Assembly (NCBI RefSeq): GCF_045037415.1
Contig: NZ_CP173438.1
Length of the DNA: 64,000 nucleotides
Strand: one strand, 5' to 3'
Source of the DNA: Escherichia coli
GTDB taxonomy: Bacteria > Pseudomonadota > Gammaproteobacteria > Enterobacterales > Enterobacteriaceae
A program made the translations under genes and the position numbers. The notes under the pieces are model-generated. The model did not search any database. It saw only the letters and a list, made by a program, of their open reading frames with translations, and had not been told where the DNA came from. Positions 28,500 through 37,896 of this stretch are shown here, piece by piece. Positions within the stretch are counted from its first letter, which is position 1. Every line of letters begins with the position of its first letter.

Positions 28500-28958
28500 T
28501 TAGTACTGATGAGCGGTCGCGTTGTTACCAAAGCCAACCTGAGTGACGTTAACGCTGGAGTTAGATGCAGTCTGGTCAACAGCAGCACCGTTACCGCCAC
28601 CGAACTGTTTAACAGTCATAGTAGAATCTTTACCATTCCACTGATCAAGAGTAGCGCTGTTGCCGAAACCACGCTGAGTCAGATCGATTGAGCTGTCATC
28701 AGAACCTTGGCCAACATCTGCACCATTACCGCCGCCGTGCTGGGTAATGGTCAGATCAGAGTTGCGGGCGTCAGCTTGCAGAGCAAGAGCAGAGTTACCG
28801 CCACCGTACTGGTAAATATTCAGCTCTGAATTCGGGCCGCTGTTATTACCGCCACCACCGTGGTTGCCGCCACCGCCGCCGTACTGAGGAACAACACCTG
28901 CCAGAGCGCTACCGGAGAATACGATTGCTGCAATTGCTGCTACTTTTAAAAGTTTCAT
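28500..28958 (-). CDS. csgA: Major curlin subunit CsgA (152 aa here)
   Basis: Protein MKLLKVAAIAAIVFSGSALAGVVPQYGGGGGNHGGGGNNSGPNSELNIYQYGGGNSALALQ... with five imperfect amyloid repeats; ATG at 28958. Confidence 0.95.
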   Translation of the reverse strand: MKLLKVAAIAAIVFSGSALAGVVPQYGGGGGNHGGGGNNSGPNSELNIYQYGGGNSALALQADARNSDLTITQHGGGNGADVGQGSDDSSIDLTQRGFGNSATLDQWNGKDSTMTVKQFGGGNGAAVDQTASNSSVNVTQVGFGNNATAHQY

Positions 28959-28998: not shown

Positions 28999-29454
28999 TT
29001 AACGTTGTGTCACGCGAATAGCCATTTGCGACTGTCTCTGCACTACAATTGCCGTTTTTTGAGTACCATACTGTGTAATATTTGCTTTATTACCAGAACC
29101 TTTCTGGATAATCATCGCAGTATTACCATAAGCACCTTGCGAAATACTGGCATCGTTGGCACTGCCCGCCTGATCAATATATGCAAGGTTATAATCTCCT
29201 GTCTGGTCAATCTTTGCCCGGTTGCTACTACCTTCTTGCGCAACAACCGCCAAAAGTTTTGAGCCTCCCTGCCGTAACTGAGCACTATTATTAGTCCCAG
29301 CTTGACCAATTATGGCTGCCTGATTAAATGAAGACTTACTCAATTCATTTACCGCAAAGTTATATTCTGAATTAGCTAAATCATAACCTGCTGCGGCTGC
29401 AATCCCAGGCGCACCCAGTATTGTTAACATCATAAATAACAATTTGTTTTTCAT
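28999..29454 (-). CDS. csgB: Minor curlin / nucleator CsgB (151 aa)
   Basis: Protein MKNKLLFMMLTILGAPGIAAAAGYDLANSEYNFAVNELSKSS... is CsgB; ATG at 29454. Confidence 0.93.
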   Translation of the reverse strand: MKNKLLFMMLTILGAPGIAAAAGYDLANSEYNFAVNELSKSSFNQAAIIGQAGTNNSAQLRQGGSKLLAVVAQEGSSNRAKIDQTGDYNLAYIDQAGSANDASISQGAYGNTAMIIQKGSGNKANITQYGTQKTAIVVQRQSQMAIRVTQR

Positions 29455-30206
29455 GTTGTCACCCTGGACCTGGTCGTACATTTAAGAAATTAAATCATTT
29501 CAACTTGGTTGTTAACGCAACCCGTATTTTGTTAACGCTGCGTTACGATGGAAAGTATGTCTGCGGAAATATTTTTAATAACTCACCCGCGCGTTGTATT
29601 TTTCTTTTTTTGTTCATACCAAAGTATTAAAACCCACGTAAATACGCTGTTATCTACGCAAAAAATATTTTGTTTTCTTTTAAATCTCCGTTTTCCGCTA
29701 TCAAAAATCACCAGACAGTCATTCTTCTTGCCCGTCGCTGATTGCTGCGATATGTCTTGCGCACAAGCCGTGACAAACCTCGTCTTTTTGCAGTAAAAAA
29801 TTGTCCACGGTGGTATGGAGAAAAAACAAGAACGTTTTACATGACGAAAGGACTACAGCGAAATATTTTTTATATGCATTATTAGTAAGTTAGCACCATT
29901 TGTATGATTTTTTAAAATTGTGCAATAAAAACCAAATGTACAACTTTTCTATCATTTCTAAACTTAATAAAACCTTAAGATTAACATTTTAATATAACGA
30001 GTTACATTTAGTTACATGTTTAACACTTGATTTAAGATTTGTAATGGCTAGATTGAAATCAGATGTAATCCATTAGTTTTATATTTTACCCATTTAGGGC
30101 TGATTTATTACTACACACAGCAGTGCAACATCTGTCAGTACTTCTGGTGCTTCTATTTTAGAGGCAGCTGTCAGGTGTGCGAACAATAAAAAAGCGGGGT
30201 TTCATC
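29455..30206. promoter_or_regulatory. csgBAC / csgDEFG divergent intergenic control region, including the csgD promoter and long 5' UTR
   Basis: 752-bp, visibly AT-rich non-coding block between divergent csgB and csgD. Known to integrate many regulators and small RNAs; individual sites were not mapped here. Confidence 0.8.
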
Positions 30207-30857
<651 letters not shown>

Positions 30858-31718: not shown

Positions 31719-32552
31719 ATGCAGCGCTTATTTCTTTTGGTTGCCGTCATGTTACTGAGCGGATGCTTAACCGCCCCGCCTAAAGAAGCCGCCAGACCGA
31801 CATTAATGCCTCGTGCTCAGAGCTACAAAGATTTGACCCATCTGCCAGCGCCGACGGGTAAGATCTTTGTTTCGGTATACAACATTCAGGACGAAACCGG
31901 ACAATTTAAACCCTACCCGGCAAGTAACTTCTCCACTGCTGTTCCGCAAAGCGCCACGGCAATGCTGGTCACGGCACTGAAAGATTCTCGCTGGTTTATA
32001 CCGCTGGAGCGCCAGGGCTTACAAAATCTGCTTAACGAGCGCAAGATTATTCGTGCGGCACAAGAAAACGGCACAGTTGCCATTAATAACCGAATCCCGC
32101 TGCAATCTTTAACGGCGGCAAATATCATGGTTGAAGGTTCGATTATCGGTTATGAAAGCAACGTTAAATCGGGCGGTGTTGGGGCAAGATATTTTGGGAT
32201 CGGTGCAGACACGCAATACCAGCTTGATCAGATTGCCGTGAACCTGCGTGTCGTCAATGTGAGTACCGGTGAGATCCTCTCCTCGGTGAACACCAGTAAG
32301 ACGATACTTTCCTATGAAGTTCAGGCGGGGGTCTTCCGCTTTATTGACTACCAGCGCTTGCTGGAAGGGGAAGTAGGTTACACCTCGAACGAACCCGTTA
32401 TGCTGTGCCTGATGTCGGCTATCGAAACAGGCGTCATTTTCCTGATTAATGATGGTATCGACCGCGGCCTTTGGGATTTGCAAAATAAAACAGAACGGCA
32501 GAATGACATTCTGGTGAAATACCGCCATATGTCGGTTCCACCGGAATCCTGA
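31719..32552 (+). CDS. csgG: Curli outer-membrane secretion channel lipoprotein CsgG (277 aa)
   Basis: Protein MQRLFLLVAVMLLSGCLTAPPKEAARPTLMPRAQSYKDLTHLP... has a lipobox (LSGC); ATG at 31719. Confidence 0.95.
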   Translation: MQRLFLLVAVMLLSGCLTAPPKEAARPTLMPRAQSYKDLTHLPAPTGKIFVSVYNIQDETGQFKPYPASNFSTAVPQSATAMLVTALKDSRWFIPLERQGLQNLLNERKIIRAAQENGTVAINNRIPLQSLTAANIMVEGSIIGYESNVKSGGVGARYFGIGADTQYQLDQIAVNLRVVNVSTGEILSSVNTSKTILSYEVQAGVFRFIDYQRLLEGEVGYTSNEPVMLCLMSAIETGVIFLINDGIDRGLWDLQNKTERQNDILVKYRHMSVPPES

Positions 32553-32563
32553 TAGATAAAAAC

Positions 32564-32587
32564 GCCGGAATTAATAATCCGGCATTT
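32564..32587. terminator. Bidirectional rho-independent terminator between csgG and ycdZ
   Basis: Hairpin gccgga-attaataa-tccggc with T-rich runs on both strands, between the csgG stop (32552) and ycdZ stop (32617). Confidence 0.7.
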
Positions 32588-32616
32588 TACTGTTTAAGCG
32601 AAAGCGTGAGTGCCCC

Positions 32617-33108
32617 TCACGCTTTATTTTTGATTTGCTGCTCACGGTGAGCGGTCTTCGTACTACGCGCCGCCAGCCACAGGCCGCTGTTTTTCATTGC
32701 GTAACCAAATACCAGTCCAAGCGCCAGCGAAGGTAACACCAGTTTCCAGTCCCCCTGCCCGGCAAACGTCGCGCATGCGCCTATAAACGTCCCCGGAACA
32801 AATGAAAGCAGCAGCTGTTTGGCCTGAATACACATCAGAAACGCGACAATACCGGTTATTACATAACCGAGAATTTCCAGATGTGGTGCCAGTGCACTAC
32901 CGTAAATAATGACCATCGCCCACACCACGCCACTAAGCAGGGTTGCAGCGGAGATCGCCAGCCCTTTCAGCCCACCTTGCGGGCAGGCAAAGTAGGCCGT
33001 ACAGCCCAGGAAGCCCGCCCAGCTTAGTAAGCCCAGGGAAACAGCCACCCATCCCCAGATACCGGAGAGAATGCCTGTTGTGATTGCAATAGAGAGAAGT
33101 ATGTTCAT
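32617..33108 (-). CDS. ycdZ: Inner membrane protein YcdZ (DUF1097), 163 aa
   Basis: Protein MNILLSIAITTGILSGIWGWVAVSLGLLSWAGFLGCTAYFA..., polytopic and hydrophobic; ATG at 33108. Confidence 0.88.
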   Translation of the reverse strand: MNILLSIAITTGILSGIWGWVAVSLGLLSWAGFLGCTAYFACPQGGLKGLAISAATLLSGVVWAMVIIYGSALAPHLEILGYVITGIVAFLMCIQAKQLLLSFVPGTFIGACATFAGQGDWKLVLPSLALGLVFGYAMKNSGLWLAARSTKTAHREQQIKNKA

Positions 33109-35943: not shown

Positions 35944-37311
35944 TCATTCATCATCCTTGCGGTTGATAAGAATTTCTGCCTCTTTTACTACCACCTTATT
36001 ACGCCCGGTCTCTTTCGCCTCGTAAAGTGCGTTATCAGCCAGTTGATAGATCTCCTTAGGGTTTAACTCATTTTTCTGCGTTACAACAGCGCCAATACTA
36101 ATCGTCACTTTTTGTGGTATGGCGTATTCAGGATTATCGCCAGTTAAACGTTCAACATTTTCCCGAATCCTTTCCGCTAAAGCTTTCGCACATTCAGTAT
36201 CGATCTCCGTCAGCAAGACGCCAAACTCTTCGCCGCCAACGCGCGCTAAAAGGTCATCTGGTCGTATGCTTTTCCCAATGATATTCACCACTGTCTTTAT
36301 CACTTGATCGCCAACCGGATGTCCCCAGGTGTCGTTGACTTTTTTGAAGTGGTCAATATCCATAATCATGACGCAATAAGGTGTTTTTTTGGCCGATGCT
36401 GATTGAACCGTCAGTTCATTAAAAAAATAATTTCTGTTGAATATATTGGTTAAGGGATCGCGATGTGCAATGTCCTTTGTTACTCGTAGCGCACTGAATA
36501 TATGGCACATAAAAATTACCAAAACGGTTAACTTACTGACTACTTCAATAGTGCGACTAATATACCAAATGGACACGCTATACCTGCTCATAAATAACAG
36601 AGAGATATTGTACAGCACGGCACAAAAAGCAATCACCGACACCCCGTTCCAGATATCACAGCGTAAACCATTAAAGTATAGATTAACCGAAAGCAAGGTT
36701 AACCACATGAAAATCATTATGGTAACATATGAGGCTTTCCAAACCACCTGACCATTTTCATTGGTTAACTCGGCAATGTGTAAATCGTAGCTCTCATAAT
36801 GGCTAGAAAATATGTGAGCAACTATCGGCCCCCCAAGAACAAAAAACAAACTTATGCACAAAGTCACTTTTTTGGAAAATAAATTGCGCTGTTTTGTGTT
36901 TTCACTAACTTTATTTATCAATGCCAGAAATATTAACATGCACAAACTCATCTGACGAAACAAATAATAAATTGCAATGTCATTTTGAACAACACTGCTT
37001 GTCAAACGCCCCTCAATAATTTGCTGAATGATAATGACGGTTTTAACAAAGTAAATCAAACAACTTAGAAAAGCCAAACTAAGTATACAGTTTGAAAATT
37101 GCCTACGGTCATAAATGAAATACAACTGCATAAAAATAAATGCAACAGTATCGATAAAAAATAAAGCAATCATAACCATCAGATAGGTTGATCGTGGAAC
37201 AACTTCCTCAACGGTTGGCTGATTGAACCAACTATTAACCAAAACCAATGCAAGCCCAAACAATAAGCTCACTAATACAGTACTACTAATTCCCAAATAG
37301 TCTTTTTCCAT
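35944..37311 (-). CDS. dgcT: Membrane-anchored diguanylate cyclase DgcT (YcdT); about 455 aa from this ATG
   Basis: Protein from MEKDYLGISSTVLVSLLFGLALV... has multiple N-terminal TM helices and a C-terminal GGDEF domain (RVGGEEFGVLL); ATG at 37311. The track extension to 37434 starts on TTG right after a stop and was trimmed. Confidence 0.88.
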   Translation of the reverse strand: MEKDYLGISSTVLVSLLFGLALVLVNSWFNQPTVEEVVPRSTYLMVMIALFFIDTVAFIFMQLYFIYDRRQFSNCILSLAFLSCLIYFVKTVIIIQQIIEGRLTSSVVQNDIAIYYLFRQMSLCMLIFLALINKVSENTKQRNLFSKKVTLCISLFFVLGGPIVAHIFSSHYESYDLHIAELTNENGQVVWKASYVTIMIFMWLTLLSVNLYFNGLRCDIWNGVSVIAFCAVLYNISLLFMSRYSVSIWYISRTIEVVSKLTVLVIFMCHIFSALRVTKDIAHRDPLTNIFNRNYFFNELTVQSASAKKTPYCVMIMDIDHFKKVNDTWGHPVGDQVIKTVVNIIGKSIRPDDLLARVGGEEFGVLLTEIDTECAKALAERIRENVERLTGDNPEYAIPQKVTISIGAVVTQKNELNPKEIYQLADNALYEAKETGRNKVVVKEAEILINRKDDE

Positions 37312-37434
37312 AAAGCTACACCAACCTGTAGGTTGTAGATCCCTTTTTATTATTAATAGATATAAGAACTGTACTGTTGTCAATATGAAAATCCACCCAC
37401 AAACAATACCGATGATGATAGTTGCAGAATGCAA

Positions 37435-37896
37435 TTATTATCACTTTAATGCTTTATACATTTTTTGCTGCAAGGCAGGCGCAAATACTTATAAAAGATT
37501 ATAATAAAATCCTTATAAAGCATTAATTAATAGATACATTAGGAATAACAATTAAATCCGTGAGTGCAGTAGCGCTGCCTTTCATCAGGACTTTCGAAAA
37601 ATCCGAAATCATGCATCGGAATTTACTGATTTAATTATTTTAATCCTAATTTATTTTGAAAAAGGTATTGGGATTTATGCCGTATTCCTGAAGATCCTCA
37701 TCATTGGAATGGATTTTCGGGCGAGAAAAGGATTTTATATGGACACTCTGCTCATCATTTCTTCTTCTCATCATCAACAATTCACGTCTCTCTTCCGCGT
37801 TTAATAACGGATTATGAGATGCAAAAATATCTTTCTTTTCAGTTACCTGTAATTAGATACAGAGAGAGATTTTGGCAATACATGGAGTAATACAGG
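37435..37896 (+). promoter_or_regulatory. ycdT / pgaA divergent intergenic region with the long pgaA leader (CsrA-regulated)
   Basis: 462-bp AT-rich non-coding block with several GGA motifs, including caggatg overlapping the pgaA Shine-Dalgarno and ATG. CsrA repression of pgaA via leader GGA sites is established; exact sites were not mapped. Confidence 0.7.

Follow-up and report, generated by a model that had tools for sequence, protein, structure and literature searches.

The region between csgB and csgD ranks among the most heavily regulated stretches of the Escherichia coli chromosome, where one-base changes can switch biofilm behaviour, and it is counted among the largest intergenic regions of the species (PMC12713406). 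From the roles described for its regulators (PMC12713406; PMC3535384; PMC12388358; PMC4894380; PMC6061853; PMC4152358; PMC3985669; PMC13304067), the right-hand ~300 bp, in the orientation used here, would form the csgD promoter, at which the activators OmpR (at D1), MlrA, IHF and RpoS-RNAP would meet competition from the repressors H-NS, CpxR, RcsB, MqsA and RcdA (spreading). [quoted passage not shown] The closest described counterpart is the spacer of K-12 MG1655 (NC_000913.3, 1103197-1103950; 754 bp), which has the same flanking genes in the same orientation. The csgD (agfD)-csgB region of Salmonella enterica shares the architecture (760 bp in subsp. diarizonae), and its spacings are close, with 65 bp between the OmpR and MlrA sites and 364 bp between the CsgD and MlrA boxes; its core, however, aligns no better than random sequence would, its leader differs in the first part, and the effects of H-NS and RcsB there are opposite in sign to those in E. 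coli (PMC12388358; PMC12713406).

Here, we analysed this region within a stretch of 64,000 nucleotides of E. coli DNA (hereafter, the window). The chromosome of an E. coli O25b:H4 strain (NZ_CP015085.1) matches the whole window (100% / 99.997% identical), and the window comes from an E. coli chromosome of the ST131 type (O25b:H4). The features that define the region are:

28999-29454, minus strand: coding sequence of csgB, for the curli minor subunit; bounds the spacer on the left (open reading frames and annotation)
29455-30206, no strand: csgB-csgD intergenic control region, ST131-type allele, 752 bp (open reading frames, annotation and K-12 alignment)
30207-30857, plus strand: coding sequence of csgD, for the biofilm master regulator; bounds the spacer on the right (open reading frames and annotation)

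In our reading, the locus is the canonical divergent csgBAC/csgDEFG control region in its ST131 (O25b:H4) allele, with the core elements intact and with lineage-restricted states that most likely have little or no effect (probability about 0.88). A sequence-only reading of the same DNA had already recognized the csgD/csgB control region, and this identity is borne out by the flanking genes, by full-length homology with the K-12 spacer (98.5% identity end to end, over 752 and 754 bp, respectively) and by a match of the leader to the RNA family ES056 (see below). The locus is already known and holds nothing new in kind; it is a low-interest lineage allele, and since nearly all of its 11 differences from K-12 are common natural variants, the region is essentially ordinary.

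The 752 bp between the genes are non-coding, as judged from the open reading frames and the sequence, with the csgB ATG at 29454-29452 on the minus strand and the csgD ATG at 30207; the same csgB and csgD gene ends are found in the RefSeq annotation of NZ_CP015085.1, so that the coordinates and the length given by the sequence-only reading are exact. That reading had also described the spacer as the longest non-coding stretch of the window, as AT-rich and as containing poly-A/T tracts. All three descriptions hold: by the NZ_CP015085.1 annotation of the 64 kb, the next-longest intergenic gaps are efeB-phoH (626 bp), pgaA-dgcT (585 bp) and mdoC-mdoG (393 bp); the spacer has a GC content of 34.4% where the window has 49.9%, and ranks at the 1.7th percentile among all 752-bp windows; and runs of at least five A or T number 16 per kb in the spacer and 4.7 per kb in the window (3.4 times denser). 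The lowest-GC 752-bp stretch of the window is found elsewhere, at about 36906-37657 (GC 31.5%), in the pgaA-dgcT spacer, a second long control region tied to biofilm.

A base-by-base comparison with K-12, as recommended by the sequence-only reading, revealed 11 differences, consisting of nine substitutions and two 1-nt contractions of A-runs, which account for the 752 bp found here against the 754 bp of K-12. All were read from the alignment:

29523, minus strand: C here, T in K-12; located 69 nt before the csgB ATG (alignment and 17 alleles)
29611: T here, A in K-12
29660-29665: A6 here, A7 in K-12
29708: T here, G in K-12
29811: T here, A in K-12
29815: A here, G in K-12
29858: G here, C in K-12
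29893: G here, T in K-12
29980: A here, G in K-12
30183, plus strand: A here, T in K-12 (T>A at -25 in K-12 numbering)
30188-30193, plus strand: A6 here, A7 in K-12 (-20 to -14)

The divergence of the spacer from K-12 (1.2%) is not raised relative to the flanking genes (0.9% for csgD and 2.9% for csgG). The region is thus not identical to K-12 with every mapped site conserved, as 11 positions differ and the MqsA palindrome is broken, but the strain-specific part suggested by the sequence-only reading is small, with only three of the 11 states restricted to the lineage (see below). Among the sites which that reading had singled out, OmpR D1 and MlrA are conserved, whereas the substitution at 29980 falls at the edge of the CpxR box and inside the IHF footprint; similarly, for the sRNA-pairing segments, the leader is unchanged from +1 to +122, whereas the A-tract of Hfq site II and position -25 differ. 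[quoted passage not shown] At -353, about -401 and -450, the changes fall in the spacer core or at its csgB-side edge, outside the footprint ranges used.

The coding sequences on either side also show small differences from K-12. CsgB is identical at the protein level, its gene differing by 1 nt. CsgD is here WP_000481500.1, from which the K-12 protein differs at S19P and S110A; WP_000481500.1 is annotated in 13 of 17 sampled E. coli strains, including O157:H7, O55:H7 and APEC O1. CsgA (28500-28958), of 152 amino acids, has one extra Gly in the N-terminal G-run and three substitutions relative to K-12.

The elements of the two promoters and of the csgD leader were placed on the sequence as follows:

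29554-29559, minus strand: putative -10 element of csgBA, of sigma-S type, reading CATACT on the csgB strand (from sequence only)
29579-29589, minus strand: CsgD box in the csgBA promoter, reading CGGGTGAGTTA on the csgB strand and unchanged from K-12 (sequence and alignment)
29914-29948, no strand: MlrA palindrome, AAAATTGTGCA-N12-TGTACAACTTTT, -147 to -113, identical to K-12 (sequence and alignment)
30001-30026, plus strand: OmpR D1 activating site, GTTACATTTAGTTACATGTTTAACAC, -60 to -35, identical to K-12 (sequence and alignment)
30027-30054, plus strand: csgD P1, with TTGATT at 30027-30032 as the probable -35 and TAGATT at 30049-30054 as the probable -10 (hexamers placed by their distance from the TSS)
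30061-30206, plus strand: csgD 5' leader, 146 nt here and 147-148 nt in K-12, starting at the TSS (30061) (5' end of the ES056 match)
30061-30152, plus strand: ES056 segment, leader nucleotides 1-92, 100% identical to K-12 (Rfam match and alignment)

The palindrome at 29914-29948 is presumably the MlrA motif described at -146 to -113 by Ogasawara et al. 2010 (FEMS Microbiol Lett), and the motif at 29579-29589 is what we take to be the CsgD box of Ogasawara et al. 2011 and Zakikhany et al. 2010. The CsgD box has a conservation of 0.8-0.9 and was found, with at most two mismatches, in 70 species; 19 bp downstream of it stands the highly conserved CATACT block, which is a plausible sigma-S -10 element (29559-29554). 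On the csgD side, the TSS would be expected about 147 nt 5' of the ATG, and the 5' end of the ES056 match, at 30061, fits this expectation as well as the published leader lengths of 146-148 nt (PMC3985669; PMC6061853; PMC4152358). With 30061 as +1, the positions of the -10, the -35 and OmpR D1 fit the published ones (PMC13304067), D1 lying at about -51 (PMC13304067; PMC10002515). The csgD -35 and -10 hexamers, the TSS, OmpR D1, the MlrA palindrome, the CsgD box and the leader from +1 to +122 are all without differences from K-12; Hfq site I and the A/U-rich RNase E region fall in this part of the leader, as do the upstream sRNA sites, among which pairing sites have been described for OmrA/B, McaS, RprA and GcvB (PMC6061853; PMC4152358). 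A scan of the region for consensus sigma-70 promoters and terminators was uninformative: it returned three promoter-like sites, where chance alone would give 3.8, and the real P1 was not among them; the one terminator-like hairpin, at 29507-29522, lies in csgB upstream/leader DNA, on the wrong strand.

The ES056 match (Rfam RF02752) scored 119.7 bits, against a gathering score of 43, with model positions 1-92 of 92 aligned to 30061-30152 on the csgD strand. ES056 was described as a 92-nt RNA-seq transcript, the 5' end of which is the mapped TSS (PMC4676190). The segment spans the A/U-rich region with the RNase E and Hfq I sites (PMC6061853) and a conserved sRNA-pairing block at 30115-30150, across which the conservation profile of the family alignment stands at 0.8-0.9. 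Since ES056 is catalogued as an sRNA, and since the spacer has open reading frames of 41-82 amino acids (for example, at 29548-29796 on the plus strand), a spacer of this length might conceal an unannotated gene, for a small protein or for an independent sRNA. We find this very improbable. ES056 begins at the csgD TSS and is here not an independent gene but the first 92 nt of the csgD leader (by the coordinates of PMC4676190, with a TSS offset of +1), and at a permissive E-value it was the only real Rfam match, STnc400, BSnc120 and others being far under their gathering scores, so that no family beyond ES056 rose above noise. The 82-amino-acid frame crosses the A-run at 29660-29665, which has five, six or seven nucleotides among E. 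coli strains, and it is therefore not kept; moreover, the spacer core is near random between genera, and the RefSeq annotations have no feature inside the spacer. The weak STnc400 match itself lies outside the spacer, in the csgG-ycdZ gap (32550-32626, minus strand; 30.8 bits against a gathering score of 80, E = 0.007), and is probably due to chance.

The distribution of the 11 states was examined in complete E. coli genomes. The spacer was matched in 5371 of 5426 genomes, through 5372 records, of which 628 had at least 99% identity, and at least 80% of the spacer was retained in 5329 genomes; of 60 evenly spaced ranks across the 5372 records, the first six were 100% identical over 752 bp. We sampled 15 further alleles evenly over the identity ranking of these records, for a total of 17 E. 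coli alleles, with six other Escherichia lineages, taken from species-representative genomes, as an outgroup. Eight of the 11 states proved common to many unrelated E. coli, and at 29611, 29708 and the A-run at 29660 it is K-12 that carries the minority state among the 17 alleles. The other three, 29523 C, 30183 A and the A6 tract of the leader, were restricted, among these alleles, to that of the window and to a relative with 99.7% identity (A21). The first of them, although rare in E. coli, is present in other Escherichia species; 30183 A was found in none of the remaining sampled alleles or outgroups.

The same search brought up records in which the region is damaged or displaced. No spacer match was found in 55 of the 5426 genomes and 42 retained less than 80% of it (61 bp in S1-CAM-01-A, for instance), which suggests deletions or insertions in the control region, and six matches were on plasmid-labelled records. 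In E. coli UID2309220007, from urine, a 10-bp deletion at the equivalent of 30000-30009 removes part of OmpR D1 and, judging from its position, would be expected to abolish csgD activation. In E. coli 13P484A, from a pig, an inserted IS1A truncates csgD, which is annotated as a pseudogene.

Apart from the changes in the leader linker, 29980 is the sole mapped site altered among the 11 differences:

29971-29982, no strand: MqsA operator, AACCT TA AGGTT in K-12 and AACCT TA AGATT here, through G>A at 29980 (alignment and PMC4894380)

The perfect palindrome of K-12, at -78, is thereby made imperfect, with a right arm that reads AGATT, and the altered base also forms the distal edge of the CpxR box (-68 to -80), within the IHF (-37 to -96) and H-NS (+28 to -201) footprints (PMC4894380). 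The A at this position might remove MqsA repression of csgD and weaken that by CpxR, leaving curli less sensitive to MqsRA and to envelope stress. Binding of MqsA is known to need the right arm, an arm mutant being unbound, but that mutant changed 5 nt rather than a single base (PMC4894380), and deletion of mqsR or cpxR left csgBA reporter levels unchanged in a recent systematic study (PMC12713406). Moreover, probe counts gave A at 29980 in 2534 of the 5426 complete genomes (~47%) and G in 2172, and about half of the sampled enterobacterial species have the equivalent of A. Thus, roughly half the species has the perfect palindrome, and its absence here is not a strain-specific loss; an effect of 29980 A on MqsA and CpxR repression is possible, but on balance we think it unlikely.

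The two remaining lineage-restricted changes, 30183 A and the A6 tract, are both within the A-rich single-stranded linker that joins SL1 to the Shine-Dalgarno (SD) hairpin of the csgD leader, where GAACAAT-A6 stands here for the GATCAAT-A7 of K-12. SL1 extends from -83 to -28 and the SD hairpin from -10 to +16, with the second sites for McaS and RprA just 3' of SL1 (PMC4152358). Using a 53-nt leader probe, for which a match requires an exact shared 28-mer across 30183 and the A-tract positions, both changes were detected together in 576 of 5426 genomes (~10%), 557 of them exact and the isolates overwhelmingly human, from wastewater or named as ST131; the pair is essentially the ST131-type allele, and the counts agree with the top six sampled ranks being identical over 752 bp. 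Since the changes fall in Hfq site II, which was mapped to the linker (PMC6061853), and in the 31 nt upstream of the csgD AUG that RydC requires (PMC3985669), the ST131 leader (T>A at -25 together with A7>A6) could be a functional allele, in which Hfq site II and the SD-adjacent sequence are reshaped. Repression of CsgD translation by Hfq and sRNAs (RydC, RybB, RprA site 2) would then be altered, and the allele would be one of the causes of the weak or delayed curli/rdar phenotype seen in ST131. In line with this view, T>A gives one more predicted pair with RydC (GCGAA:UUCGC, -0.9 kcal/mol), and ST131 clade C isolates are mostly Congo-red negative or delayed in rdar formation (bioRxiv 10.1101/786350; 10.1101/2022.05.07.487787).

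Modelling of the leader argues in the other direction. With RNAfold, the leaders of K-12, of ST131 and of both single mutants share one minimum free energy (MFE) structure, and the unpaired probability over the translation initiation region shifts by at most 0.03 among them; with an identical MFE structure, the leader variants have no structural explanation. RNAduplex predictions with RydC, McaS, RprA and RybB differed by at most 2.4 kcal/mol, and were dominated by long, interrupted and unrealistic duplexes; these differences are small and model-dependent, and the predictions give no evidence of an effect on sRNA pairing. McaS site 2, in the linker, is dispensable in vivo (PMC6061853).

The sequence of the linker is itself labile, which also weighs against a functional leader allele. 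The A-tract has 4-8 nt among species, with a variable neighbourhood around -25, and within E. coli it slips independently, as FCI29 has the ST131 allele with 30183 A and A7, and 13P484A a K-12-type allele with T at 30183 and an A6 tract; in addition, homopolymer length is error-prone in sequencing. The two changes together keep four A-R-N repeats, shifted 3 nt upstream, whereas the single changes lead to five or three, but the preservation of the repeats is an observation and no evidence of selection. Finally, the Congo-red phenotype of clade C is compatible with reduced CsgD output, but other causes of the ST131 biofilm phenotype are documented, including a fimB insertion and deletions of dgcM/ydaM and ycgG (10.1101/786350; PMC10459773). 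A functional leader allele is, on this evidence, improbable, and the three lineage-restricted states most likely have no effect or a small one. Neutrality of the leader allele is nevertheless not to be assumed, since curli expression is known to respond to single-base changes in the csg region (PMC13304067; PMC11278976; PMC10459773). In the literature searched we found no described csgD-leader or promoter variant of ST131. Thus, ST131 has an intact control region with a lineage-marking leader pair and a common broken MqsA operator; the leader pair and the operator are two cheap, testable candidates for a possible role in the low curli production of ST131.

We also compared the spacer across enterobacteria, using a CsgD probe to locate the orthologous spacers in one genome per species, for 75 species. 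Its length was 733-802 bp in 73 of the 75, from Escherichia to Buttiauxella. The description of the spacer as unusually long therefore holds for the window and for E. coli generally (PMC12713406), but not as a strain-specific trait. The only short spacers sampled were those of Kosakonia pseudosacchari and K. quasisacchari, of 586-589 bp and with no match to the MlrA box. In 70 species, the intervals between the conserved elements could be compared:

csgB ATG to CsgD box: median 124 bp, SD 7.9 (n = 70 species)
CsgD box to MlrA box: 354-368 bp, SD 3.4 (n = 70 species)
MlrA box to OmpR site: 65 bp in 68 of the 70 species
OmpR site to csgD ATG: median 209 bp, SD 6.8 (n = 70 species)

The two outer segments, from the csgB ATG to the CsgD box and from the OmpR site to the csgD ATG, are shorter and better conserved than the CsgD-MlrA interval, yet more variable in length. 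Within that interval lies the least conserved part of the region:

29634-29896, no strand: central AT-rich spacer core, poorly conserved in sequence between genera, conserved in length and AT content (species alignment)
29769-29790, no strand: conserved island in the core, CGTGACAAACCTCGTCTTTTTG here (conservation profile)

The core, of ~270 bp, carries seven of the 11 differences from K-12. Against E. coli, its median global identity was 0.62, as compared with 0.58 ± 0.03 for shuffled sequences, with a GC content of 32-44%. Tighter anchors for the core were too divergent in 34 species and led to a mis-anchored core in another genome (L024; 438 bp), and the distance between the CsgD and MlrA boxes is thus the robust measure. 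As the distances between the boxes are stable around a core that is nearly random, length and AT-richness rather than sequence appear to be maintained, which is suggestive of constraint on the former. The core could then be an architectural element, constrained in length and free in sequence, that couples the two curli promoters, for example as a fixed-size loop or filament shaped by H-NS and IHF. We advance this tentatively and think it somewhat unlikely, although the reported intrinsic curvature and the interplay of H-NS and IHF fit the conservation of length (PMC12713406; PMC13304067); if it were true, selection would act on the length of the spacer, not on its sequence. The conservation of length across species is a modest lead on the coupling of the curli promoters, and the only lead of wider interest to emerge from the region. 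The island at 29769-29790 is the sole conserved one in the core; it is located at about -292 to -272 from the csgD TSS, inside the initial footprint of RcdA, and in most other genera takes the form GTSAC-N11-12-TTTTCTTAAG.
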